Numbered from the stretch's first letter, positions 4,286 to 55,593 are shown. The stretch: DNA of 64,000 nt from a virus (IMGVR_UViG_3300029441_000005:12773-76772); one strand, 5' to 3'. Made by a program: numbers and translations. The notes: generated by a model not told the origin, from the letters alone.

Positions 4286-5244
4286 TCTGCCTCCTTAATT
4301 ACTTTTAATAATGTGGCCTTTTTATTTTGGTCTTTTATGCCCTTTGCCCTCATATACCTCCTTACCATAGTTTTCTTAGTAAGTTCCCGAGTTATTTGCG
4401 GGGCATCTTCCACCGCCACAACCCGATACTTGCTAGCAATGACAGTATAATAATTGCCATCATCCTTAATTTCATCTTCTGATGATACATCCACAAATTT
4501 AGGAAAGCCTTTGAATGGCTTGAATTCCATTGAGAAGTCCTCATATATTTTCCAATATCCAAGTTTACAATTACGGTCTGTTCTCCTTTGTTGTAAAGGA
4601 GCTCCTACCATGTATATCTTCTTTCCAAGCCTCTGAGGTTTATGTATATGGCCTATCAATACTAACTTGAACTTAGATAGAAGATTCACATTCAGATTCT
4701 CTACTGTTCCAACTTCAGTATTATCAGTATCTTTAGCTCCCGGGTAGTCAGTATGCAATAATAGGATTGTTGGCTTTAACATAGCTTCTTTCAACTCAGC
4801 TTTGATTAACCCATCTAACCCCTTGTTATGGTCTAAATAGGGAATACCTACTACTCTGAACTTATCAAACTCATGATAAGAGAAGTCCAGATTGTGTAAG
4901 AACGAATACCTACGACATAAGTTTGCCCAGTGTGATGGAGATTGATTAGTTATCGAATTGCTTTTCTGTAGGTCATGGTTTCCAGATATACCATAGATGT
5001 TAAATTCCTCGCACCTATTTAACTCTTCGAACTGTTCAATTATAATTTCATCAAGTGAAGTACTTATATACTCTGGACGGTGCATAAAATCCCCGCAAAA
5101 AAATGCCGGGCATTTATACTTAATACATAAGTCTTTAATCAAAGAGAGGACCCTGAAAATACTTAGGGTCCTCTTATTATCCTCATTGAACTTAGAGAAT
5201 TCCCCTAAGTGCAAATCGGAGAATGCTATACCTATCACCTTCAT
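4282..5244 (-). CDS. Mre11/SbcD/T4 gp47-like nuclease
   Basis: Metallophosphoesterase motifs SDLHLG, GDFMH, GNHD, GHIH. Confidence 0.85.
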   Translation of the reverse strand: MKVIGIAFSDLHLGEFSKFNEDNKRTLSIFRVLSLIKDLCIKYKCPAFFCGDFMHRPEYISTSLDEIIIEQFEELNRCEEFNIYGISGNHDLQKSNSITNQSPSHWANLCRRYSFLHNLDFSYHEFDKFRVVGIPYLDHNKGLDGLIKAELKEAMLKPTILLLHTDYPGAKDTDNTEVGTVENLNVNLLSKFKLVLIGHIHKPQRLGKKIYMVGAPLQQRRTDRNCKLGYWKIYEDFSMEFKPFKGFPKFVDVSSEDEIKDDGNYYTVIASKYRVVAVEDAPQITRELTKKTMVRRYMRAKGIKDQNKKATLLKVIKEAE

Positions 5245-5903
5245 AACTGAAGAAATTTCTTGATAAGGTGTTTTCTCTTCTCGTAGTTCATCTCATCCAG
5301 TATCATGACTTTTATCTTGTAACCCATAATTTCCAGTGTACCGGTATTAGGTATACCATTTACATACTGGAGTATATTTGAATCGGGTTTATATCCCCAC
5401 AGGTCAAGTATACCATACATTACCTGCGATACCTGGAATTGATAATACCGAGATAATACTCGTTTACCATTGTCTTCTGTTACCCATTCATTAAAGAAGC
5501 TTGCTGAAAAAGGTATGAAAATTAGGTGAGTACACTGTTGACCCAGTAACATACGACATAAGTCTACTGCATGGTCTAAGTCGCATTCGGCTATCCTGTG
5601 AGAAAGTTTGTTGATGAAGTATGCTGCCGAATCAAAGTATGACCGGTCAGTTACAAAGCTATCTTCTCCCCTGAAAGCTTTGTTACGCAGATTAAGTACT
5701 TGCATATCCTGAGCAAATACTGTACTGGCATCTTGCTGAATCATATCAGCATGAGGCATGTCTCTTGTTTCAGGTACCAAGTCCGAATATGACCCGGATA
5801 TGAAAGGTATCTTTAACATATCCGCTACTTCCTTGGCAATGGTTGTTTTTCCAACCCCAGAAACACCGGTGAACATAATTTGATATTTCCTACCGTTGTA
5901 CAT
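5241..5903 (-). CDS. P-loop nucleoside/nucleotide kinase (dNK/dNMP-kinase-like)
   Basis: P-loop GVSGVGKTT. VTDRSYFDSAAYF resembles the (E/D)RS motif of deoxynucleoside kinases. Confidence 0.5.
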   Translation of the reverse strand: MYNGRKYQIMFTGVSGVGKTTIAKEVADMLKIPFISGSYSDLVPETRDMPHADMIQQDASTVFAQDMQVLNLRNKAFRGEDSFVTDRSYFDSAAYFINKLSHRIAECDLDHAVDLCRMLLGQQCTHLIFIPFSASFFNEWVTEDNGKRVLSRYYQFQVSQVMYGILDLWGYKPDSNILQYVNGIPNTGTLEIMGYKIKVMILDEMNYEKRKHLIKKFLQL

Positions 5904-8862: not shown

Positions 8863-9237
8863 TTATTTATTGGTTTCGATATAAAGTATCTCGTTCAGAG
8901 ATAATATAGTTGTTACTTGATTGGGAAGGTCTACTACATCTAGTTCTTTACCAGCATACAGACCGTATGTAACTACTGCTCCAACCTGAAGACCGGGATA
9001 TTCTTCACATTGTTCATCGGTGACTGGTCCTACCTGAATTACTACTCCCTTGCGAGGTACTGTATCTTTATCGTGTTCCTGAGGGATATAAAGTCCTCCT
9101 TTGGTTTTGGTATCTGCAGTTACTACCGGTGATACAATAAGTACTCGACTTCCTGTGGGAGTTCCTAAACCGTTCAGTTTCTCATTCAACTCCCTTGCTT
9201 CTTTGACCGAAATAAGGTCTAACTCAATTCTTGACAT
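8863..9237 (-). CDS. GroES/Cpn10-like co-chaperonin
   Basis: KTKGGLYIPQ ... RKGVVIQVGP ... LQVGAVVTYGLYAGKEL matches the Cpn10 layout and size. Confidence 0.6.
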   Translation of the reverse strand: MSRIELDLISVKEARELNEKLNGLGTPTGSRVLIVSPVVTADTKTKGGLYIPQEHDKDTVPRKGVVIQVGPVTDEQCEEYPGLQVGAVVTYGLYAGKELDVVDLPNQVTTILSLNEILYIETNK

Positions 9238-9239
9238 AG

Positions 9240-9686
9240 TTACTGTTGTTTACGTAAGTTTGCTGATATCGTTCTTAATATATTCTCTCTTGATTCATAA
9301 GCTTTACATATACTTATCATCTTACTCGCATTGTACTCAGCCTTCATATATCTTTTCAATGCTCCTTGATAAGCTTGGTTGTTCTCTGCTTTGTGTGCTG
9401 CAGCATCATTATTGATATTACCCGATTCTTTGTAGTAAAGCCATGCCTTGCTATATGCTTGGTCCTTTGCCTTTTCAAGTTTATCCCTTTTATATATAAG
9501 CCTATCCCTTACCATCACCAATAGAGCATAATTAGATGGACTTCTACGTAAAGACTGATTGACCAGGTTCTCGTCAATCATGAGTTCCTGGTCTAAATCA
9601 ATCTCATAGGTTTTCCCTTGAAATAGAATCTTTAGTGTGTTTTTCTTAATCTGGGATAGACGTACTATCTTTTGCCTTTTTTCCAT
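9240..9686 (-). CDS. hypothetical protein (size, helical pattern and position are compatible with a UvsY-like recombination mediator; unproven)
   Basis: 148-aa ORF tightly packed in the recombination module. No diagnostic motif. Confidence 0.4.
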   Translation of the reverse strand: MEKRQKIVRLSQIKKNTLKILFQGKTYEIDLDQELMIDENLVNQSLRRSPSNYALLVMVRDRLIYKRDKLEKAKDQAYSKAWLYYKESGNINNDAAAHKAENNQAYQGALKRYMKAEYNASKMISICKAYESRENILRTISANLRKQQ

Positions 9687-10159
9687 ATAACACCTCTTTC
9701 ACTGAAGTATTTATACATGGTCATAATGCTTATTCCATATTTGACCTTTATCTGTAGGTTACTCATACCACTCTCATAATCTTCTATCATCTTATTTATA
9801 GACTCCTCACTCAACTTAGGGCTTGGTATATTAAATCTACCGTCTCTTATACATTGTTGAGTATTCTCTTGGTTAGTACACCAATATAGATTTTCTACTT
9901 TATTATTTTCTCGATTATTATCCTTATGACCCACACACGGTTTATTATCTGGGTTTGGAATGTAGATTAAAGCTACCAACCTATGTATATTAAACGTATA
10001 CTTAATCCCCTTATTATTTCTTAGGCTTACTATCAAGTAACCATTGTTCTTCTTTCTCTTAGCCATTTTCCTCCAAGTAACTCTATCTCTATACTTAGAG
10101 TACACATTACCTTCTCGAGTAACATGGTAACAATCAAAATCTGGTATATTACCTTTCAT
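9665..10159 (-). CDS. free-standing HNH homing endonuclease (NUMOD4-like + HNH_3-like + C-terminal HTH)
   Basis: YHVTREGNVYS, HRLVALIYIPNPDNKPCVGHKDNNRENNKVENLYWCTNQEN. Overlaps both neighbouring genes. Confidence 0.75.
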   Translation of the reverse strand: MKGNIPDFDCYHVTREGNVYSKYRDRVTWRKMAKRKKNNGYLIVSLRNNKGIKYTFNIHRLVALIYIPNPDNKPCVGHKDNNRENNKVENLYWCTNQENTQQCIRDGRFNIPSPKLSEESINKMIEDYESGMSNLQIKVKYGISIMTMYKYFSERGVIWKKGKR

Positions 10160-12443
10160 ACATTCTCTTCCTAAACTCTCTCTTATTTTTCTCTATCTCT
10201 TCTGGATATAACTTAGGATAATCTTCTATTTCAATACCTTTGAACTTACGATGTTCCTCTAAGTACTCATCAGGATTAAAATCTGGTTCAAGCATTTTCC
10301 TATAATCATATCCAGGAATAAAAGGTAGTTCCTCTGCCATAGAACGCCCGATAACGAAGTCCATTGACATACTTACGTCGTCTATCTGGAAGTTGAAGTA
10401 TTCTTTAGTATTTGGGTTACGGCAAGTTTCCCAAATCTCGTATACTACCCAGGTATTTATATATTCGGGACTTACCAAGTAATAGGTAGCATCATGAACA
10501 TTACAAGTCTCTTGCATAAATGGTAACTTACCTTGCCTCATTTTCCAATAGTTTAGGATTGAAGCGAATAAGTTCATATCAGATGCAGCTGATTGACAAG
10601 GCATATTAACTGATAATCTTACTGCGTATGCAGCTTCTTGCTCATTATCAGAATATACTTGAGGTAACCTTCTTTTCCTGCCAAACAAAGATTTAATATA
10701 TCCATGTCTTACCAACACTTTCTCCTGGTTAATCATGAACTTCTTAATCTTTGGATGCTCTTGGAAGAACTCATTCAACTGTTGTTGAGCTTCGTCAGGG
10801 GTTACGATAATACCTGCTTTTGGGTCAGATAGTTTAACTGCAAGCAGTTTCTTCTGAATACCGTAGATAATACCGAAACATATCTGCTTTGCCTGCTTCC
10901 TTCGATTTTTCCAAAGCTTATAATCTGGATGTTGTTCATCGCTGTAAGCTTTGTTTGCTTCCTCGTATGATACACCATACTTGTTTGCTGCAATAGCAAG
11001 GTGAGGGTCCTGACCCTTAGCAAATGCCTCAAGATAAGTCTCATCTCCCGATAGGTGTGCCATGATTCTTAACTCTGCCTGAGAGTAGTCAAGTGCCATG
11101 TATAATTTCCCCTTTGGAGCTACTAACTGTTTCTTAATATTAGCATCTACTGAAGTCTTTGGTATCTGCTGAAGATTTGGTTCAGAACTACTTAGTCGGC
11201 CAGAAGTAGTACCAATAATTTTGAATTGCCCGTGAATTCTATCATCATCCTGAACTTTATCATGCCATCCCTCAATATAGGTTGTATACATTTTCTTTAA
11301 CCCTCTCAACTCGAGAAGATTATCCAGGAAAATTGCTTTGGGATTTTCGGGATTTTTAACCGTTAGTCGAAGTTCTACCAATGTATCTTCATCGGTACTC
11401 GGCTTATCAGTATCACGATTAGTTTTCTTATCCTTGGTATATTTTATGATAGGGAATTTGAACCCCTTTTCAGAATACAACAGTAGAGGTAAATCAATTG
11501 TACTTCCCAAGTTTACTTCTCGGGTTAATTCCAATTCTTTTTTAGTGGTGAATACACCAGCTCGTATATTGGATATTTTTTGCTCCCTGCTTGCTATTTT
11601 CCGTGCGTCCTTTGGGTTATGATAATCCAGGTCTTCAAGTTCACTTTCAATAGATGCAAGGTACTTGCTTATTCTTTCTTGAACAAGCCATCTAGAGAAT
11701 TTTTTCACTCGTGGAAGATTCAAGCAATTAGAAGTTGCTTGTTCAATCTTTGGCTTGTAAGATTCAAGCAGTTCCTGATTGAATTTCCTATCGAGGTATA
11801 ATCCGGTTTTTTCAGCATGCTGCAATACCCTAGAAGCTGGCATAATCAAATGCCTAAACAAGGGGTACATGCCAATCTCTATTAGCTTACTTTCAAAGAA
11901 CATAGCTAACCTAAGAGTATAATCGGTATCCTGACAACCATACTTGCATAATGGTTCCAAGGGTTTCTTATCCCAAGGTATCTTGTCAAACTTCTCTGCC
12001 TTCTCGTAATCGCCATGCTCTGGTAGATACCTTCTAACCATTGACTTCAGGTCATTGGGTTTCTCTTCATTTAGAAGATACTTCATAAGCATTCCATCCA
12101 GAACAGTACCTCTAACATATATCCCATACAACTCGAATATCTGAAGGTCAAACTTCAGATTCCATCCCACTTTAGTTATATTGGGATTCTCAACCACCTT
12201 TCTACCAAAATACTTTAACCAACGTTTCCAATGAGGGTTTTCATATTCGTGGTGACATAATGGAATAGATACACCAGAACCAACTTGAAAGGTTACAGAT
12301 AAAATTGTGGGTTTGAAGGTTTTATTATAAATACCTTCTGCATTTGTCTCGAAGTCGACGGAAGCTATGCCGGTTTTCAAACAAGCTTTCACAAGCCGCT
12401 TGACTTGTGAGAAACTTTTGATTATGTCATATCTTGACTCCAT
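10149..12443 (-). CDS. family-A DNA polymerase with 3'-5' exonuclease domain
   Basis: Exo motifs SVDFETN, NLKFDL, YGCQDTDYT. Pol motif A DYSQAELRIMAHLSGD, motif B RRKQAKQICFGIIYG, motif C NVHDA. Confidence 0.9.
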   Translation of the reverse strand: MESRYDIIKSFSQVKRLVKACLKTGIASVDFETNAEGIYNKTFKPTILSVTFQVGSGVSIPLCHHEYENPHWKRWLKYFGRKVVENPNITKVGWNLKFDLQIFELYGIYVRGTVLDGMLMKYLLNEEKPNDLKSMVRRYLPEHGDYEKAEKFDKIPWDKKPLEPLCKYGCQDTDYTLRLAMFFESKLIEIGMYPLFRHLIMPASRVLQHAEKTGLYLDRKFNQELLESYKPKIEQATSNCLNLPRVKKFSRWLVQERISKYLASIESELEDLDYHNPKDARKIASREQKISNIRAGVFTTKKELELTREVNLGSTIDLPLLLYSEKGFKFPIIKYTKDKKTNRDTDKPSTDEDTLVELRLTVKNPENPKAIFLDNLLELRGLKKMYTTYIEGWHDKVQDDDRIHGQFKIIGTTSGRLSSSEPNLQQIPKTSVDANIKKQLVAPKGKLYMALDYSQAELRIMAHLSGDETYLEAFAKGQDPHLAIAANKYGVSYEEANKAYSDEQHPDYKLWKNRRKQAKQICFGIIYGIQKKLLAVKLSDPKAGIIVTPDEAQQQLNEFFQEHPKIKKFMINQEKVLVRHGYIKSLFGRKRRLPQVYSDNEQEAAYAVRLSVNMPCQSAASDMNLFASILNYWKMRQGKLPFMQETCNVHDATYYLVSPEYINTWVVYEIWETCRNPNTKEYFNFQIDDVSMSMDFVIGRSMAEELPFIPGYDYRKMLEPDFNPDEYLEEHRKFKGIEIEDYPKLYPEEIEKNKREFRKRMYER

Positions 12444-12690: not shown

Positions 12691-12708
12691 AAGAATTATA
12701 AAATCATG

Positions 12709-12791
12709 TACTCGGAGCGGGAATCGAACCCGCAAGGTCAATGACCGTCAGAGCTTAAATCTGATGAGTTTACCTATTTCTCCATCCGAGC
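12709..12791 (-). tRNA. tRNA-Leu (anticodon TAA), type II with long variable arm
   Basis: Hand-folded: acceptor GCTCGGA/TCCGAGT, anticodon loop TTTAAGC, variable arm CGGTCATTGACCTTG, T-arm GCGGG-TTCGATT-CCCGC. Confidence 0.85.
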
Positions 12792-12800
12792 AATAAAAAT

Positions 12801-12821
12801 GAGGAGTTATCAGTACTCCTC
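12801..12821 (-). terminator. hairpin GAGGAGT-N7-ACTCCTC followed (minus strand) by ATTTTTATT, immediately 5' of tRNA-Leu
   Basis: Perfect 7-bp stem read directly. Could be a terminator or a processing signal. Confidence 0.35.
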
Positions 12822-13002
12822 TAAACTGGCCGCTGACAAGATATTACCTCTAGAAAGATATCTCACCATTACAGTATCAATTAAGCATCTTATACTTTAT
12901 ACTTATTTAGGTGTTTTTCCTAAAGGGAGATACTTACCTTTAGTAATATGATTGATCAGTTCATATTCTCACCCAAATATACCATCTGCTTTTCAATGGT
13001 AG

Positions 13003-13077
13003 TACGGAAGACAGGATTCGAACCTGCGACCCCTTGCTCCCAAAGCAAGTACACTAACCGGACTGTGCTACTTCCGT
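13003..13077 (-). tRNA. tRNA-Pro (anticodon TGG)
   Basis: Hand-folded: acceptor ACGGAAG/CTTCCGT, anticodon stem-loop CTTGC-TTTGGGA-GCAAG, T-loop TTCGAAT. Confidence 0.85.
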
Positions 13078-13166
13078 AAATTAGGTACCAGTCTATATCC
13101 CTACCGTCCAGTACCTGGGAATGAATCAGGACTCGTTGTCCACAGCGCAAAATAAAGATTCATTAG

Positions 13167-13240
<74 letters not shown>

Positions 13241-13318: not shown

Positions 13319-14092
13319 TTACCTTAATTCGGTCTGGATAGAAGTTTTGAGTTTTACCCAGTCCTTTTTATAACTATGCAAACTATCAATAGTATGATAG
13401 AGATAACCAGGTTTGGTACCCACTTCTCTAGCTACGTATTCCATTAGTTTCCATGCCAAGTATACATCATTTCCAAAGTGAGTTACAAAATCTGATGATC
13501 TTTGGTGATAGCAAATATTTAATTGCTTTTCACCTCGGGCATTCTCCCGTATTAGGAAGTCGTAGTACATTGAACATGGGATGCGCATCTTACCATCCAG
13601 GCTTTCAGCATCTGAATATTCTACCTGCCCATCTTCACCATAGATATTAAGTATGGCTTTACGAGTATCGTTATCATCCTTGAGCAGACCTATAACAGCC
13701 TGTAACTTGGTCATTACAATCCCATTATACCTTACTACCTCATTCATTCTCTCTGAATAAGTATAGTCGAAGTACCTACCATTTACAAGAAACTCCCCCC
13801 ATATTTCAGGACGTAATTTCCAAGCTTCTCCTGGGTTAATTTGTCCCGGATGGATCCTTTCCTGGAACTCGGCATCTGCCCAATCTTTGGATTGGGTGAA
13901 TACAAATAGGGGAGCCGGGTCTTCCATGTGAGTTAAACAGTACTGTTCACATATCAATTCTTTAGTAATAAAGTCATCTTTGCCTTCGATAACTTTATTC
14001 TGATAGGTACGGGGTTTTACCTCATTACCCATCTCACAAAGATTACGAGCTGTTTCTGACATTAACTCATACGGGTTCGAATATATTCTCAT
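13319..14092 (-). CDS. thymidylate synthase / dCMP hydroxymethylase superfamily enzyme (Asp at the base-specificity position, as in T4 gp42)
   Basis: DTRKAILNIY, nucleophile IPCSMYYDF, HQRSSDFVTHFGND, DSLHSY align with the TS and dCMP-HMase core motifs. Confidence 0.75.
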   Translation of the reverse strand: MRIYSNPYELMSETARNLCEMGNEVKPRTYQNKVIEGKDDFITKELICEQYCLTHMEDPAPLFVFTQSKDWADAEFQERIHPGQINPGEAWKLRPEIWGEFLVNGRYFDYTYSERMNEVVRYNGIVMTKLQAVIGLLKDDNDTRKAILNIYGEDGQVEYSDAESLDGKMRIPCSMYYDFLIRENARGEKQLNICYHQRSSDFVTHFGNDVYLAWKLMEYVAREVGTKPGYLYHTIDSLHSYKKDWVKLKTSIQTELR

Positions 14093-14289
14093 TGTTCGTG
14101 ATTTTTAATATATTTTCTTATAGATTTTCGTAGTTCTTTTAGGTCCTGAATATTCATGTTGGGAAGACCTACCCAATAATTAACATTGGTACATACATAT
14201 AACTCTATGTCCCTGCCATTCCTATCAGGATATTTACCCTTGAATATCTTTACTCCAAAATAGGGTTTATCTTTCCTCTCGTACTTCAC
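14089..14289 (-). CDS. small hypothetical protein (GTG start)
   Basis: 66-aa ORF. C-terminal NMNIQDLKELRKSIRKYI is shared with the adjacent unlisted ORF. Confidence 0.4.
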   Translation of the reverse strand: MKYERKDKPYFGVKIFKGKYPDRNGRDIELYVCTNVNYWVGLPNMNIQDLKELRKSIRKYIKNHEQ

Positions 14290-14446
14290 TTAGATACCTC
14301 CTTATCTTTCTTTTAAGTTGCCTTAAATCCTTTACACTGATATTGGCCACGGTATTGAATAACCACCCATCATCCGTGGAGAAAGTTATATCTATATCTC
14401 CTCCGAGTTTACTGGTGTAAGGAGATTTCTTTACCTCTATTTTCAT
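14267..14446 (-). CDS. small hypothetical protein (59 aa), tandem paralog of 14089-14289; below the ORF-track cutoff
   Basis: Own translation MKIEVKKSPYTSKLGGDIDITFSTDDGWLFNTVANISVKDLRQLKRKIRRYLSEVREER. Shares the DL(R/K)xL(K/R)xxIRxY(L/I) tail. Confidence 0.35.
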   Translation of the reverse strand: MKIEVKKSPYTSKLGGDIDITFSTDDGWLFNTVANISVKDLRQLKRKIRRYLSEVREER

Positions 14447-14482
14447 TGCATTGGTATTTGCAATTCAATAGACTTCCCTATA

Positions 14483-15271
14483 TTAGAATGGTAGCCAGTC
14501 TTCACTACCGAGTGTACAATCCTTTGCCAGTGTTTTGGGATATTTGAATAATTCTGGTCTGAGTACTTTCAATGCTCTTTTATGTACCTTATACTTTATC
14601 TTGTCAGGGTCTACTTTAAGTAGATACTTCAACCTATCATACCAATTACCATCATATATACCAAGCTTATCACTAAGCTTTAATAGGTCTTCATGAGCAT
14701 GATACATTAGTAATACAGTATCATCGTTGAATATCTGACTGAAGTGTATTGATACATGGAATTTCTGTCCGATAGGGAATAAGTATTCCCCTATCCTTTG
14801 AATCAGTAATAGGTCACAGATAAGTCTTTTGGTTACCTCTGATGCCCTCATGAATACCGTTATCATAGGGTAATCCATACCTGCTTTCTTTGATACAGTT
14901 AGAGACAACAAGCAATTCTTGCCATGAGCATGCTTATTATCAAACTGATAGCCTATGTTGAATATCTTCCTTGAGTTTAAGGCTTTTACTACTTCCTGCC
15001 TTAAATCAATTATACCGTTTTCATTCACATAATTTGCTACCAAAGACTTCCACTTAGCTGAAGTGTAATTGAAATGCCTGCCGAAATCGAATTCAGGATC
15101 TACCAGAGGTTCTTTAATATAGATGACTAAATCATTTAAGTATTGTGCTTTACCAATTCTTTCAATATCCAAACCGGGAGTATTGAAAAGGAATAATCTG
15201 TTAAGTCCCTCCCAAGCTTTCATACTTGTTTTGAACTTCAACAGGTTATTCTTTAACTTAAACTTACTCAT
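14483..15271 (-). CDS. divergent thymidylate-synthase-fold paralog, function unknown
   Basis: FNYTSAKWKSLVANY, NSRKIFNIGY, GKNC then MRASEV 22 residues later, Asp at +11 from the Arg. Same motif order and spacing as TS. Confidence 0.5.
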   Translation of the reverse strand: MSKFKLKNNLLKFKTSMKAWEGLNRLFLFNTPGLDIERIGKAQYLNDLVIYIKEPLVDPEFDFGRHFNYTSAKWKSLVANYVNENGIIDLRQEVVKALNSRKIFNIGYQFDNKHAHGKNCLLSLTVSKKAGMDYPMITVFMRASEVTKRLICDLLLIQRIGEYLFPIGQKFHVSIHFSQIFNDDTVLLMYHAHEDLLKLSDKLGIYDGNWYDRLKYLLKVDPDKIKYKVHKRALKVLRPELFKYPKTLAKDCTLGSEDWLPF

Positions 15272-16253
15272 CTGTTTCAGGAGTTAATTCACTGTCATCC
15301 ATATCGTCTTCTTCTGAAGAGGAGAATGATATCAACTTCTTCCTTTTCTTCTCCCCACTTTCCTCTAGCTTTAGTTTGAGACCATACTTTTCGGTGAACT
15401 TTAAGTAGGTCTTTTTTATCATGTTACGCTTGAGGATAGAGGGACATACCTCGGGCAATGGGATACCATCCCAATCTCCAATTTCTAAGGCTGAGGCTAA
15501 CATAGATTTCTGTTTATACCCCAAATCTTTCCTTAATACCTTGAAAGCTCTGAAACTGTTACCATAGGTTTTATAACCTGCTTCATCGCTTGTCATAAGT
15601 TTTTTGAGAGATTTACGTATCTTCTTTCTACGTACTTCATCGGTACAGTTCTCTTTCAATAACTCCTTAATATCTTTTCGATTCTGATACAGCAAGATTG
15701 TAGTATCATTTGCCCAAGCTGCTTTGATAACCAACTTTAGAGAGAAGTTATCATGGCCATAAATATACTGACCCATACGGCAGAATAGTAGCATATCTAT
15801 GGGCAACCTTGTAACTATCTCTGAAGATCGGAGTATTACTGTTATATCAGGATTTTCAACTCCTATCTTACGAGAGAATATACCGCCCACCAAGCATCCC
15901 TTACCACTGCCATGATTATCAGCAAAATGGAATCCAATGTGATAATTCCTGTTTACTGTCTTGTTCTCTTCTAACTTCCTTATCATCAGTTTGGCCTGAT
16001 CAAGTACATCCAAATCCAAGTAGTTGGTAATTAAACCAGTCCACTTAGTCATGGTGTACCCAAACATCTTACCGAAGTCAAAGTCAGGGTTAAATTTAGC
16101 CTCAGCTATTTCTACCATCAAGTCGTATGTAAAAAGAGAATCGGTTAAGTTATAACCAATTCCTTCACAAAACCAGTCGGGTTTCTTGATTAAGAAATTT
16201 TCCAGTATCTTTTCCCAAGCTTCTATTGGGTTCTTAGCTTTTACCAAATTCAT
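15264..16253 (-). CDS. second divergent thymidylate-synthase-fold paralog with acidic C-terminal tail (start moved to MNLVKAKNP)
   Basis: FGYTMTKWTGLITNY, GKGC then LRSSEI 22 residues later, Asp at +11. Clear paralog of 14483-15271. ATG 16251-16253 abuts the upstream stop. Confidence 0.5.
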   Translation of the reverse strand: MNLVKAKNPIEAWEKILENFLIKKPDWFCEGIGYNLTDSLFTYDLMVEIAEAKFNPDFDFGKMFGYTMTKWTGLITNYLDLDVLDQAKLMIRKLEENKTVNRNYHIGFHFADNHGSGKGCLVGGIFSRKIGVENPDITVILRSSEIVTRLPIDMLLFCRMGQYIYGHDNFSLKLVIKAAWANDTTILLYQNRKDIKELLKENCTDEVRRKKIRKSLKKLMTSDEAGYKTYGNSFRAFKVLRKDLGYKQKSMLASALEIGDWDGIPLPEVCPSILKRNMIKKTYLKFTEKYGLKLKLEESGEKKRKKLISFSSSEEDDMDDSELTPETDE

Positions 16254-16254
16254 A

Positions 16255-17166
16255 CTAATACTTCGATTTTTGACGGAACATATTGATACGGTTCTTCTTG
16301 AAATAGATGTAGAATACATCATCTGAACCCATACCTATCCATCCCAAATACCCACAGAAGTAGATGAAGGCCTTCACTAATTCCGACTGATACTTTAACT
16401 CCTGAGTCATTACCTGGGATTGCTTCCAGGGTTTATTCTTCAGGAAGTTACGAGCAATGTTCAGATGATGGGTTATCTTCCATAACAGATATGGGTAGTT
16501 TACTAAGTACTCTACATAATTGAAGTATCTACCTCCCTCGAGTAACTTTGTGTTATAGTCCAGATGTGTTTCTGAATCCATGTTCTCGTACCACTTGATA
16601 AGGTCTGTGGCATTGTTGTGTAAGATAACACTGATATCTCCCTTGACCATTATCCACATTACCCCGAGATTCATTGCTGTACGCAGAATATCATCGTGGT
16701 TCTTGTTTAGAGAATCTACCACTGATTGAGTACAATGGTTGTCCTTTACCCACTTCTCCATATATGTCATTATATCCTCTGGTTGGATATTGGCATATAT
16801 AAGCAGTTCTATAAAGAAGTGGATTGCATCGGCGTTCTCTTCGTTAGCATTCTGCAGATTATTGAGTATCTCTGTATACTCTATGCAATCTCCTTGGGTT
16901 TGTACCAACTTGGCATGATTGGCTTCGAATAAAGCCATAACATTTTCGAAAGATTCATATCCTTCGGATAACTCCTCAATAACCCGGGCAGTAAAGTCCT
17001 TCAATAGTGTTTGAGAAGCCTTTGTATTGATGTCTACCGGATACTGTGGTAGCCCCTCTATGCCTATATACCCAGACAAGAGGTTCTTTTGCATTTGATA
17101 TATCTCTTCTAGATACTTATGGTCGGGAATTATACCCGGTTCTTCTTTTATATCGCGACTATCCAT
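16255..17166 (-). CDS. all-alpha MazG-like / dimeric-dUTPase-like NTP pyrophosphatase (start moved to MDSRDIKEE)
   Basis: EELSEGYESFE and EENADAIHFFIELLIY resemble the paired EExxE/D metal motifs of the MazG superfamily. Confidence 0.45.
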   Translation of the reverse strand: MDSRDIKEEPGIIPDHKYLEEIYQMQKNLLSGYIGIEGLPQYPVDINTKASQTLLKDFTARVIEELSEGYESFENVMALFEANHAKLVQTQGDCIEYTEILNNLQNANEENADAIHFFIELLIYANIQPEDIMTYMEKWVKDNHCTQSVVDSLNKNHDDILRTAMNLGVMWIMVKGDISVILHNNATDLIKWYENMDSETHLDYNTKLLEGGRYFNYVEYLVNYPYLLWKITHHLNIARNFLKNKPWKQSQVMTQELKYQSELVKAFIYFCGYLGWIGMGSDDVFYIYFKKNRINMFRQKSKY

Positions 17167-17170
17167 GGTC

Positions 17171-17746
17171 TTACTTGTTATCGTGTGCTCCGAATCCTTT
17201 GTCTCCTCTTGTACCCCAGTTCTTTGCCTTCTCTTCGTACTCTTCATTGGTAATCTCTACCGGAGTTGAAAGTATGATGGGAACGTGTACGAATTGCATT
17301 ATTTTCTTACCTTGGTTCAGAGGAATACAAACCTCTTCGGGTGAACCGTTATGAATACCTATGTGCATTTCCCCAGTATAAGGGCTATCCACTATCTCGG
17401 CAGTGAACGACAAACCCTCTTTAGTTGCAATCCCAGATTTATTTGCTGCCATGAGCATGGACTCTTTTGGATTGATAAGTACCTTTATACCAGAAGGGAT
17501 GAGAAGTCTTCCACCTGGCTTAATTACCACATGTACATCATCAGTACCCAACCCATTTAGTTTGATGTAACCTTTACCTAACATCTTCCGATTGATACCG
17601 GAAAAGTCATCCTTACCTTTCTCCCCAACCTTAAGAATATCTTGGTCGGATAACTGAGGAATGTAGAAATCAAGCCCTGCATCCCCCTCATTTGCTCGGT
17701 TAGGGGATTTAACCTCTCGAATCTTTGTGAACTCTAATTGTACCAT
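17171..17746 (-). CDS. dut: trimeric dUTPase-family pyrophosphatase
   Basis: GDAGLDFY, KSGIATKEG, IVDSPYTGEMHIGIHN, C-terminal RGDKGFGAHD (motifs 1-5). Confidence 0.8.
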   Translation of the reverse strand: MVQLEFTKIREVKSPNRANEGDAGLDFYIPQLSDQDILKVGEKGKDDFSGINRKMLGKGYIKLNGLGTDDVHVVIKPGGRLLIPSGIKVLINPKESMLMAANKSGIATKEGLSFTAEIVDSPYTGEMHIGIHNGSPEEVCIPLNQGKKIMQFVHVPIILSTPVEITNEEYEEKAKNWGTRGDKGFGAHDNK

Positions 17747-17747
17747 G

Positions 17748-18149
17748 TTATTTACTGTTGAATTTACGATAAATGTCTCTTGCTTCCTTTCGGGATAACT
17801 CGAACTTACTCTGAAGCTTATCGAGTATTTCCTTCTTACCCAGTTTTTCTCTTACCAATTTACGGTAGTACTTTTTACAACCTTCTATATCTACCAAAGG
17901 TTCCAAATCCTTGAACTGGGTTTCTGCTTCCAGCTCTTTACGAGTCTTACCCATAAGAGCTGTGAACTTAATACAACAGAGTTCGGAATCTCCGCACATC
18001 TTACATTCCTTGGTTGAAAGGTCATAGTGTTTACCGAAACATGGATCTTGTCCTGAACCAAGTTTGGTGATGTCTATAGGTTCAAGAATATCCCCAGTCT
18101 CTAACTCCTTTCTTACTTCCTTAAGTTTGTCTTTCTTTTTCTTCGCCAT
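17748..18149 (-). CDS. hypothetical Cys-rich protein
   Basis: 133-aa ORF with CFGKH...CKMCGDSELCC. Confidence 0.45.
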   Translation of the reverse strand: MAKKKKDKLKEVRKELETGDILEPIDITKLGSGQDPCFGKHYDLSTKECKMCGDSELCCIKFTALMGKTRKELEAETQFKDLEPLVDIEGCKKYYRKLVREKLGKKEILDKLQSKFELSRKEARDIYRKFNSK

Positions 18150-18310: not shown

Positions 18311-18372
18311 GTTTATATAGCTTTAGCTATATAAACCTCTATTAGTATTTAGTATACTAAATACTAATAGAG
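18311..18372. repeat. two abutting perfect palindromes (26 bp at 18311-18336, 36 bp at 18337-18372) inside a 260-bp AT-rich gap
   Basis: gtttatatagc-ttta-gctatataaac, then ctctattagtatttagta/tactaaatactaatagag, both verified by hand. Confidence 0.9.
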
Positions 18373-54594: not shown

Positions 54595-55593
54595 TCATTT
54601 TGATATTAGACCAGCCTTTTGTAAACAGGATTTTAACCACAATGAATTCTCATATACGGCACCCTTAGTTAGGGTATTTCTCCCTTTATTCAACCAATAA
54701 GTCGGATTAGCATTGTCAAAATATACCTTGAATGATTTGGGAAAACCCATAATCACCCTATATTCATCAAGTCCCATTATTCTACCGTGGGGATTAAATT
54801 GCCTTGATGAAGGTCTTACGGTTAATGGGTAGCTCTTTTTCTTATTTCGATATACTCCAGGAAGAGTCTTCATCTTTTGAGTTCTCATGGGCCATTTGTA
54901 ATCATTTTTGAACTCAGTTTTCCATAGCTTTCTCACTTGAGCTACTGTCAAAGTAGTTTTTGACTTATCTGCATAATGATACATGGCCAATTTTTTATCG
55001 TCAGCTTCTCTATAGTTTATGTCTCTCCTTACTCCTTTCTTCAGTTGACACAGATTTTTGGGTTTAGTAACTCTAAAAGTATGATCAAAGATCTGAGGAT
55101 TGATCTTGGAGTCTTTTCTGACTCCTATTAACACCAAACGTTTCCTACTTTGTTGAGAATTACCAAATACCGTAACGGAGTGACAGTGCACTATAAGTTT
55201 GTAATCGGGTAAATTATGTTCCCATTCCCCGATAGGGATAAAATCTAGAAGTTTTGGGAGGTTCTCAAGCATAAATATTGCTGGTTTGAACTTCTTAATA
55301 CTAGAAAGATACAGATTAAGAGTAACATCTTCCCGGGGTTTGCCCAGGGATTTTTTCCTGGAATATGAGAATACCGAGCTATGCCCACATGATGGAGAGC
55401 CGAGTATTAGGTCTATTTTGGAAGTTTTTACCTCTTCCAGTGACTTTACAAACGGTATATCACCAAAATTAAGCTTCCATTGCTCTTCTTTTTTGGAATG
55501 GAATACTGCTCTGGGTTCTACATTAGCTATAAGATGTTCCTTAAACTCAAAAAGAAGCGCTCCTTGGGCTCCACAGATACCTAAGACATTCAT
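54595..55593 (-). CDS. C5-cytosine methyltransferase-fold enzyme with a variant catalytic motif (start moved to MNVLGICG)
   Basis: Motif I GICGAQG, IV GSPSCGHSS (PCQ becomes SCG), VI MLENLPKL, VIII QQSRKRLVLIG, IX RIMGLDEYRVIMGFPKSF, X KGAV. Confidence 0.7.
   Translation of the reverse strand: MNVLGICGAQGALLFEFKEHLIANVEPRAVFHSKKEEQWKLNFGDIPFVKSLEEVKTSKIDLILGSPSCGHSSVFSYSRKKSLGKPREDVTLNLYLSSIKKFKPAIFMLENLPKLLDFIPIGEWEHNLPDYKLIVHCHSVTVFGNSQQSRKRLVLIGVRKDSKINPQIFDHTFRVTKPKNLCQLKKGVRRDINYREADDKKLAMYHYADKSKTTLTVAQVRKLWKTEFKNDYKWPMRTQKMKTLPGVYRNKKKSYPLTVRPSSRQFNPHGRIMGLDEYRVIMGFPKSFKVYFDNANPTYWLNKGRNTLTKGAVYENSLWLKSCLQKAGLISK

Follow-up and report, generated by a model that had tools for sequence, protein, structure and literature searches.

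The stretch of viral DNA considered here (IMGVR_UViG_3300029441_000005:12773-76772; 64,000 nucleotides, called the window below) carries on its minus strand a tightly packed block of co-directional genes at 13319-18149, in which successive stop and start codons overlap or nearly abut. The block encodes, in order, a cysteine-rich protein of 133 amino acids, open reading frames (ORFs) 5, 4, 3 and 2, two small ORFs named s59 and s66, and ORF1, followed by three tRNA genes and the gene for a family A DNA polymerase (PolA). The initial annotation of the locus described ORF1, ORF2 and ORF3 as three tandem paralogs of the thymidylate synthase (TS) superfamily that, together with a MazG-like gene (ORF4) and a dUTPase gene (ORF5), would form a novel module for the hypermodification of pyrimidines, probably cytosine. 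The five minus-strand ORFs of that proposal, and the peptides quoted from them, are all present at their given positions. Our analysis assigns ORF1 to a distinct clade of the TS family, predicts a TS fold for ORF2 and ORF3 as members of a separate, virus-only family, and finds the two families together in a conserved cassette in many phages.

The gene junctions are tight. ORF5 (17171-17746) ends in a TAA that lies 4 nucleotides before the ATG of ORF4 at 17166, the TAG of ORF4 lies one nucleotide before the ATG of ORF3, ORF3 (15264-16253) overlaps ORF2 (14483-15271) within ATGAGTAA, and the stop codon of s66 (14089-14289) overlaps the start codon of ORF1 (13319-14092) in the sequence ATGA. The reading frame of ORF4 is open as far as 17247, and 17166 rather than 17247 is likely its true start (giving 16255-17166); the start of ORF3 at 16253 is backed by orthologs of 329 amino acids. 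In a scan of the operon, promoter-like sites were about as frequent as expected by chance (21 against 20.6), and the number of terminator-like sites did not clearly exceed chance (7 against 3.6 +/- 1.9).

ORF1 and its thymidylate synthase clade

ORF1 passes the Pfam model for thymidylate synthase (PF00303, Thymidylat_synt) with 57.5 bits against a cut-off of 24.3 (E = 1.5e-15) and matches the TS family of PHROG (E = 1.7e-25). Its closest sequences in the PDB are not those of ThyA but those of AfhB, the deoxycytidine monophosphate (dCMP) hydroxylase of phage HY126 (9iqu, E = 1e-6), and of MilA, a CMP hydroxymethylase (E = 3e-4). Residues were mapped by alignment with E. coli ThyA and T4 gp42, whose sequences were validated by known residue numbers, and are given in E. 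coli ThyA numbering. In this alignment, ORF1 keeps Cys146, Arg166, Ser167, Asp169, Glu58, Tyr94, Trp80, Arg126, His207 and Tyr209, and replaces Asn177 with Asp, Leu143 with Arg and His147 with Ser. The distance from the catalytic Cys to Arg166 is 25 residues in ORF1 (C173, R198), compared with 20 in ThyA (C146, R166) and T4 gp42 (C148, R168), and D209 of ORF1, 11 residues past R198, aligns with N177 of ThyA and D179 of gp42. The protein ends ~16 residues past the Tyr209 equivalent, compared with 55 in E. coli ThyA, and so the C-terminal lid, which ThyA needs for hydride transfer, is missing.

The canonical ThyA signature (Asn177, Leu143, His147 and the C-terminal KAP..I/V lid) is not found in ORF1. 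All ORF1-like TS proteins carry Arg at position 143 (R-[IV]-P-C), Asp at 177 and Ser or Thr at 147, and have no lid; by alignment, ORF1 is a genuine member of the TS family whose base-specificity residue is Asp, as the initial annotation had held. The N177D substitution has been tied to the use of dCMP, L143D/E to a hydroxymethylated product, and D169N to 5-hydroxylation that depends on flavin (PMC13326640), and in a metavirome association study N177D and position 147 were most associated with cytosine-modified viral contigs (PMC8670742). ORF1 is predicted from these residues to act on dCMP with folate, as a C5 one-carbon transferase, and it is predicted not to be a hydroxylase; the Asp169-to-Asn mark of 5-hydroxy-dCMP synthases is absent, the residue being Asp. 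Arg143 fits neither published product signature. The product is probably hydroxymethylated, an assignment that we favour because the lid is missing and no dihydrofolate reductase (DHFR) gene was seen in the window.

The ORF2-like family

ORF2 and ORF3 are mutual paralogs (32% identity, BLASTP E = 3e-40). Neither has a match in Pfam or NCBIfam, ten distant relatives are likewise without a Pfam match, and the only PHROG match of ORF2 is to family 34294, 'unknown function'. AlphaFold (AF2) models built with family alignments reached a predicted local distance difference test score of 90.4 for ORF2 and 82.3 for ORF3. A Foldseek search of the PDB with the ORF2 model returned AfhB (9iqu, E = 1e-7, target-normalised TM score 0.57), MilA (9e-7), T4 dCMP hydroxymethylase (7e-5) and ThyA (~1e-3), and the top 50 matches are TS superfamily proteins (TS, dCMP hydroxymethylase, MilA, AfhB), the one at rank 31 being a designed protein on that fold. 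The top 50 for ORF3 also belong without exception to the TS superfamily, with MilA as the best match (E = 1.6e-5). Among the viral models of BFVD, those nearest to ORF2 are uncharacterised gut-phage proteins and a protein of Pseudomonas phage PMBT14, followed by TS and gp42. ORF2 and ORF3 are accordingly predicted, on these models, to have the TS fold that the initial annotation had proposed for them.

A broad alignment of the ORF2-like family (36 sequences, ~20% mean identity) singles out the residues under strongest constraint: K73, L77, Y81, C120, R142 and D153 are invariant, and Y69, W74, F110 and E145 are conserved in at least 90% of members. Muddy gp47, Emalyn gp47 and KimJongPhill gp77 likewise have equivalents of the six invariant residues. 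Aligned with TS by hhalign, the broad family gives a probability of 63% (E = 6.9e-5) and pairs C120 with Cys146, R142 with Arg166, E145 with Asp169 and D153 with Asn177 exactly, so that the conserved Cys falls, in the alignment, on the catalytic one, as initially proposed. The family profile also weakly matches the catalytic hairpin of ORF1-like TS proteins. Both ORF2 and ORF3 keep equivalents of Tyr94, Cys146, Arg166, Asp169 (Glu or Asp) and Asn177 (Asp), with 22 residues from Cys to Arg (C120, R142 in both) and the Asp (D153) 11 residues past that Arg; the spacings of 25, 22 and 20 residues and the Asp at +11 had been given correctly in the initial annotation. At the Asp169 position, Glu is found in ORF2 and in ORF3 of the window, and Asp is commoner among ORF3 orthologs. 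Many members have a basic loop directly ahead of the Cys (F-x-S/K-R-R/K; K118 in the gut clade), which may bind phosphate in place of the SRR clamp of TS.

ORF3 adds a conserved C-terminal motif, GDWDGIPLPxxCPSIxxRN..K..YLKF, followed by KKRKK and an acidic tail. Basic or AT-hook-like tails end several other members (GRPPK in P0368 and P0397, KRGRPRK in P0408, Lys-rich in P0419 and P0376), and a search for domain fusions in long members found no Pfam domain, only tails of low complexity or of this basic or AT-hook-like kind. A hotdog-fold protein, the sole match of the narrow-family profile among PDB sequences, was judged spurious. The idea that ORF2 and ORF3 substitute for a zinc-type dCMP deaminase was rejected, as many cassettes also hold a real dCMP deaminase.

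ThyA (PF00303) thus shares with all three proteins the predicted fold and the covalent-catalysis core; ORF1 scores above the Pfam threshold and differs by Asp177, Arg143 and the absent lid, whereas ORF2 and ORF3 are missed by the Pfam model. MilA (5jnh, 5b6d), which is cytosine-specific with Asp at 177, is the second-best structural match for ORF2 and the best for ORF3, as well as a sequence match for ORF1; it differs in its ribonucleotide substrate, its role in antibiotic biosynthesis, its Asp143, its larger size and its retention of an SRR-type motif. ORF1 on the one hand and ORF2 and ORF3 on the other are two separate, anciently diverged families. The initial description of the three as tandem paralogs is in this respect too simple. 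Literature searches found no functional study of the ORF2-like family, in keeping with the earlier statement that no described pathway explains ORF2 and ORF3; one member, in GenBank MW202455, bears the automated label 'pyrimidine hmase synthase'.

Conservation of the cassette and its surroundings

The ORF2-like family is small and virus-only. Among 1.84 billion representatives it accounts for 248 clusters (50% identity), and in GTDB it occurs only on phage-sized contigs mis-binned into metagenome bins of inconsistent taxa. A scan of IMG/VR with the narrow ORF2-like alignment gave 564 loci, and the architecture was compared in the best 80. The fullest order (helicase, 133-residue protein, dUTPase, MazG, ORF3, ORF2, TS, PolA) is found in 70 of these 80, with s59/s66 interspersed in 28 of the 70; five of the remaining ten have an extra ThyA and five are cut short. 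PolA occupies the same place relative to the cassette in 76 loci, the other four ending at a contig edge, and among the distant contexts only the 2-kb contig L008 does not show this position.

ORF2 occurs without ORF3 in three of the 80 loci, and a more distant relative has a single copy of 304 amino acids that is equally similar to both. The extra ThyA, found in L079, L081, L082, L086 and L088, is canonical (Leu143, Asn177, C-terminal KAPLSVG). In three loci it is inserted in the cassette with ORF3 kept, giving four TS-superfamily genes in a row, and in L081 and L082 it stands in place of ORF3 with ORF2 kept, so that pairing of ORF2 with ORF3 is not obligatory. Since a canonical ThyA coexists with it, ORF1 is not the dTMP synthase of these ThyA-bearing relatives; for the window phage, too, such a role was rejected, given the Asp177/Arg143/lidless signature and the coexistence of ThyA or ThyX in relatives.

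In distant phages the core of the cassette consists of a P-loop kinase, an all-alpha nucleoside triphosphate (NTP) pyrophosphatase, an ORF2-like protein, an Arg143/Asp177 TS and often a dCMP deaminase, followed by PolA. It is found in L002, L004 and L007-L011, in Clostridium perfringens phages of the CPAS-15 type, in Streptomyces phage KimJongPhill (L098), Gordonia phage Emalyn (L099) and Mycobacterium phage Muddy (L100, gp49-gp44), and, together with ThyX, in the freshwater phage MW202455. The dCMP deaminase lies within the cassette in Muddy, Emalyn, KimJongPhill, L007, L009 and L010. A gene like that for Emalyn gp47 is present in 85 phage records, where it is annotated 'hypothetical protein'. 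The cassette of Muddy and of the Gordonia CT phages shares with the window the kinase, the MazG-type 'dUTPase', the ORF2-like protein (gp47 in both Muddy and Emalyn), the Asp177/Arg143 TS and PolA; the window differs in having two ORF2-like copies, an extra trimeric dUTPase and two small ORFs, and in lacking a dCMP deaminase. The ORF2-like gene has an ORF1-like TS partner in every context examined, bar one IMG/VR locus cut at the contig end, and the kinase, pyrophosphatase, ORF2-like protein and Asp177 TS are conserved together across very distant phages. What the present analysis adds to the initial annotation is that hundreds of phages, cultured ones included, carry the two families jointly in a conserved cassette.

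The partners of the TS-like proteins are those initially named: the MazG-like gene, the dUTPase and the P-loop kinase are borne out by Pfam, PHROG and PDB matches, and the T4-like parts are present. ORF4 passes the Pfam dUTPase_2 model (31.3 bits, cut-off 22.9, E = 2.9e-7) and matches PHROG 12184, nucleotide pyrophosphohydrolase (E = 1e-20); it is an all-alpha NTP pyrophosphatase of the MazG/dimeric-dUTPase type and, by analogy with T4 gp56, a candidate dCTPase. Its orthologs (286-296 amino acids) adjoin ORF2-like genes in every context examined. ORF5 is a trimeric dUTPase (PF00692, 36.4 bits, cut-off 22, E = 5e-9; NCBIfam dut, E = 2e-16; PDB dUTPases, E = 5e-9). Outside the block, a minus-strand gene at 5241-5903 encodes a P-loop dNMP/thymidylate-kinase-like protein that matches PHROG 2107, thymidylate kinase (E = 8e-9), has weak Pfam matches to AAA_28, AAA_18 and Cytidylate_kin2, and is weakly similar to the cassette kinases of other phages; it is a candidate kinase for a modified deoxynucleoside monophosphate (dNMP).

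Between ORF2 and ORF1 lie s59 (14267-14446, minus strand, 59 amino acids) and s66 (66 amino acids, GTG start), which are paralogous (BLASTP E = 4e-8) and variably present among the close relatives in the 80 IMG/VR loci. In a single pairwise BLASTP comparison, s59 resembles the C-terminal tail of the ORF2-like protein P0361 (E = 3e-5), and there may be a functional link between this type of small domain and the ORF2-like proteins. A motif like the s59/s66 domain also ends ORF2-like P0368. The basic, Cys-rich 133-residue protein (17748-18149, minus strand) is present in 79 of the 80 loci, the exception being a truncated locus, and has orthologs in L002 and L004. It carries the motif CFGK..C..C..CC and is conserved directly upstream of the cassette in the gut-phage clade; a perfect hairpin with a 16-bp stem lies at 18337-18372, between its gene and that of the helicase.

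On the other side of the cassette, the minus-strand region 12708-13240 holds the genes for tRNA-Leu(TAA), tRNA-Pro(TGG) and tRNA-Met(CAT), between ORF1 and the polymerase gene; 36 nucleotides of the tRNA-Met region are shared at 97% identity with the tRNA-Met of Acinetobacter phage ZZ1. PolA (10149-12443, minus strand), identified from its translation and its conserved position, is only ~27% identical to its nearest cultured relatives. An HNH endonuclease gene (9665-10159, minus strand) overlaps the 3' end of the PolA gene in the window, and in L004 (9852-13484) a DUF559-type endonuclease gene interrupts that for PolA. The RecA/UvsX homolog of L002 (13496-15703) contains an intein that bears a LAGLIDADG domain. 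A gene for a Cpn10/GroES-like co-chaperonin (8863-9237, minus strand, Pfam E = 4e-12), between the genes for a gp32-like single-stranded-DNA-binding protein and PolA, is also conserved in L002 and L004. In L007, L009 and L010, PolA is fused to a uracil-DNA glycosylase domain and the dCMP deaminase gene directly follows that of the Asp177 TS; the fusion resembles the SPO1/SP-10-like polymerases of phages with modified thymine.

A proposed cytosine-nucleotide pathway and its alternatives

The reading that we favour, at a little below an even chance, is that the genes of the locus, translationally coupled in one operon, remodel the deoxynucleotide pool in the manner of the T4 dCTPase, gp42 and gp1, with an extra enzymatic step on a cytosine nucleotide carried out by ORF2 and ORF3. 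A T4-like cytosine pathway with ORF1 at its head is preferred because the gene set fits the logic of pre-replicative modification. The T4 pathway comprises the gp56 dCTPase/dUTPase, the dCMP hydroxymethylase gp42, the gp1 dNMP kinase and the cd dCMP deaminase, and shares with the window an NTP pyrophosphatase, a lidless Asp177 TS homolog and a dNMP kinase, all beside replication genes; gp42 and ORF1 have the Cys, Arg166, Asp169, Glu58 and Tyr94 equivalents in common. The differences are that gp42 has Asp at the Leu143 position where ORF1 has Arg (the two are ~22% identical), that T4 has no counterpart of ORF2 or ORF3, and that for the window phage no glucosyltransferase was found and a C5 DNA methylase is encoded.

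In the proposed pathway, ORF4 would hydrolyze dCTP to dCMP, and ORF1, with methylene-tetrahydrofolate as the donor, would add a one-carbon unit at C5 of dCMP, most likely yielding 5-hydroxymethyl-dCMP. The kinase encoded at 5241-5903 and the nucleoside diphosphate kinase of the host would take this product to the triphosphate for incorporation by the phage PolA. ORF2 and ORF3 would be active as homodimers or as a heterodimer, with the Cys attacking C6 of a cytosine nucleotide, in a second step acting most plausibly on the product of ORF1. This step is proposed to be folate-independent because the folate-binding helix, the C-terminus and the SRR motif are lost while the catalytic and base-binding residues are kept, and the tight coupling to an ORF1-like TS suggests that ORF2 and ORF3 act on the ORF1 product or in complex with ORF1. 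As a guess, the exocyclic methylene intermediate might be formed anew and joined to a further nucleophile, or the 5,6-dihydro adduct might be exploited in some other way. A bolder claim would make the ORF2-like family a new branch of TS-fold catalysts with an undescribed folate-independent reaction on a cytosine nucleotide, for instance substitution at the 5-methylene of what ORF1 makes or covalent catalysis on the 5,6-dihydro adduct. Hundreds of phages, among them abundant human-gut phages, C. perfringens phages and the therapeutic mycobacteriophage Muddy, would on this view contain an unrecognised non-canonical pyrimidine in their DNA. The claim is put forward tentatively, and we consider it somewhat doubtful.

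Several observations on the proteins weigh against this pathway. With the narrow ORF2-like family, hhalign gives a probability of only 12% for the match to TS, and the family profile finds AfhB among PDB sequences only weakly (E = 0.04), partly via a shared N-terminal strand-helix motif; since sequence-only searches are weak, the link of ORF2 and ORF3 to TS is convincing only when structure prediction is combined with the broader family profile. The placement of Cys120 at the TS active-site position is likewise a prediction from alignment rather than from three-dimensional geometry. The ORF2-like alignment shows no conserved SRR (the phosphate clamp Arg126'/Arg127' of the partner subunit), no conserved Arg21 and no conserved ligands of the 3'-OH (His207/Tyr209), and conserved equivalents of the Glu58 helix, Trp80/Trp83 and the TS C-terminus were also absent. 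TS-like nucleotide binding by ORF2 and ORF3 is not assured, because the equivalents of Arg126'/Arg127', Arg21, His207/Tyr209 and Glu58 are lost. The Glu145 position is occupied by Tyr in actinophage members. As to ORF1, the published hydroxymethylase signature is not matched: at the Leu143 position, where verified hydroxymethylases have an acidic residue, ORF1 has Arg rather than Asp or Glu.

Two features of the window point in the same direction. A homolog of C5 cytosine-specific DNA methylases is encoded outside the operon, at 54595-55593 on the minus strand (PF00145, E = 1.1e-16), and weighs against full C5 substitution, as the enzyme would then have no substrate. Its motifs include LGICGAQG (I), ENL (VI) and an unusual SPSCG in motif IV instead of the usual P-C dipeptide; an 81%-identical relative, MT121964, has an annotated cytosine methyltransferase. 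Short C-containing palindromes (potential restriction sites) are strongly avoided in the window, with 29 GATC observed where 233 are expected (observed-to-expected ratio 0.12), no ATGCAT (13.6 expected), one CATATG (15 expected) and a ratio of 0.49 for CTAG, which suggests that cytosines at the avoided sites are not protected. The ratio for CpG is 0.57, and TTTAAA occurs 4 times where 29.7 are expected. GATC is also nearly absent from L002 (3 observed, 49 expected), L009 (1, 38) and L010 (1, 28), and not from L004 or CPAS-15. These data are difficult to square with C5 substitution that is complete or bulky, because a phage with such DNA would need neither a methylase nor site avoidance. Modification, if not absent altogether, is likely to be small or partial, or to give no protection from the host enzymes concerned. 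Cultured phages with the cassette, Muddy and the Gordonia CT cluster among them, are routinely sequenced, and a limited literature search found no reports of unusual DNA in them; nor were papers found on MT121964 or on modified DNA in C. perfringens phages of the CPAS-15 type. Genes for sugar activation or glycosyltransferases were not found near the cassette. The fold assignment and the catalytic alignment are supported, and a novel hypermodification module is a plausible reading, while its stronger form, complete or bulky substitution of cytosine, is weakened by the methylase and the avoidance of sites.

The methylase and the site avoidance, in implying ordinary cytosines, would suit a cassette that serves ordinary thymidylate supply and makes no modified base. 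Here dCTP and dUTP would be converted to dTTP for a phage more AT-rich than its host: the MazG protein and dUTPase would give dCMP and dUMP, a dCMP deaminase, where present, would feed TS for dTMP, thymidylate kinase would complete the route, and ORF2 and ORF3 would be accessory. A variant would lead from dCMP to 5-methyl-dCMP and on to dTMP through deamination. The dCMP deaminases in the cassettes of the three actinophages and of L007, L009 and L010 agree with this, and the cassette of the Gordonia CT phages has been published as 'thymine synthesis' (PMC10353413), a reading that ignores the ORF2-like gene and the Asp177 signature. Each ORF1-like TS, however, has Asp177, Ser or Thr at 147 and no lid; ThyA in five relatives or ThyX in one would be redundant beside ORF1; the window has no dCMP deaminase, and a DHFR gene was not seen there; and the strict conservation of the ORF2-like catalytic residues would be left unexplained. 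We consider thymidylate supply unlikely, although it has a real share of the probability. A quite unlikely alternative is that ORF2 and ORF3 are non-catalytic, serving as regulators or scaffolds in a heterodimer with ORF1, as tethers of a dNTP-synthesis complex to the replisome, or as poison subunits of the host ThyA. TS enzymes are obligate dimers with shared active sites, phages with 5-hydroxymethyluracil make inhibitors of the host TS, ORF2-like proteins are always accompanied by an ORF1-like TS in the contexts examined, many members have the acidic or basic tails typical of protein or nucleic-acid tethers, and the canonical phosphate- and sugar-binding residues are lost. Yet the residues that are invariant at ~20% identity are catalytic or base-binding (Cys, Arg, Asp, Tyr) and not those of an interface, and ORF2 is kept where ThyA replaces ORF3 in L081 and L082.

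The loss of SRR, Arg21 and His207/Tyr209, by which TS grips a free dNMP, would also be expected of a TS-fold enzyme that modifies pyrimidines in DNA after replication, as would the basic AT-hook-like tails of several members and the KKRKK of ORF3. Not every member has such a tail, though, and it is missing from ORF2; the position of the gene, flanked in every case by those for the NTP pyrophosphatase and TS and with a dNMP kinase gene alongside, is a pre-replicative arrangement; and the invariant Arg166 equivalent and the common basic loop before the Cys fit phosphate binding. We know of no TS-fold enzyme acting on DNA and hold this possibility to be improbable. Finally, ORF2 and ORF3 could be flavin-dependent, either as 5-hydroxy-dCMP synthases like HY126 AfhB, RB69 gp48 and DLP3 gp80 or with flavin used for another C5 reaction. 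AfhB (9iqu, 9iqc) is the closest structure to ORF2 (MilA being the best for ORF3), the top PDB sequence match of the family profile, with the N-terminal strand-helix motif included in that match, and the best PDB sequence match for ORF1; these synthases share with the window proteins the compact TS fold and the Asn177-to-Asp change, and AfhB, like ORF2 and ORF3, is without the folate C-terminus. Against a flavin enzyme, the Asp169-to-Asn and Leu143-to-Glu changes are absent from ORF1, ORF2 and ORF3, with Glu or Asp, or Tyr in actinophages, at 169 in the ORF2-like proteins; identity to AfhB-type synthases is 12-14%; their arabinose/UDP-sugar gene set is absent from the cassette, and no sugar-activation or glycosyltransferase genes were found nearby; and hydroxylation needs O2, whereas the family does well in anaerobic settings, in phages of the gut and of C. 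perfringens. A flavin-dependent role is accordingly very improbable.

The TS fold was long thought to be limited to folate-dependent one-carbon transfer, and work of 2025-26 has reportedly shown that it also hosts flavin-dependent hydroxylation. A third, virus-only TS-fold clade, predicted to have kept the catalytic core and shed the folate apparatus, and encoded beside an Asp177 TS, is a candidate for further base chemistry. Cultured phages carry the cassette, and the question is therefore directly testable. Should no new base be made, the annotation of these phages would still be corrected, in that the TS of the cassette is not a standard one and the neighbouring 'hypothetical protein' is predicted to be a TS-fold protein. 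If a new base is made, the finding would bear on the evasion of restriction and CRISPR, on the sequencing and engineering of phages, on the interpretation of gut viromes, and on the biology of Muddy and other phages already given to patients.

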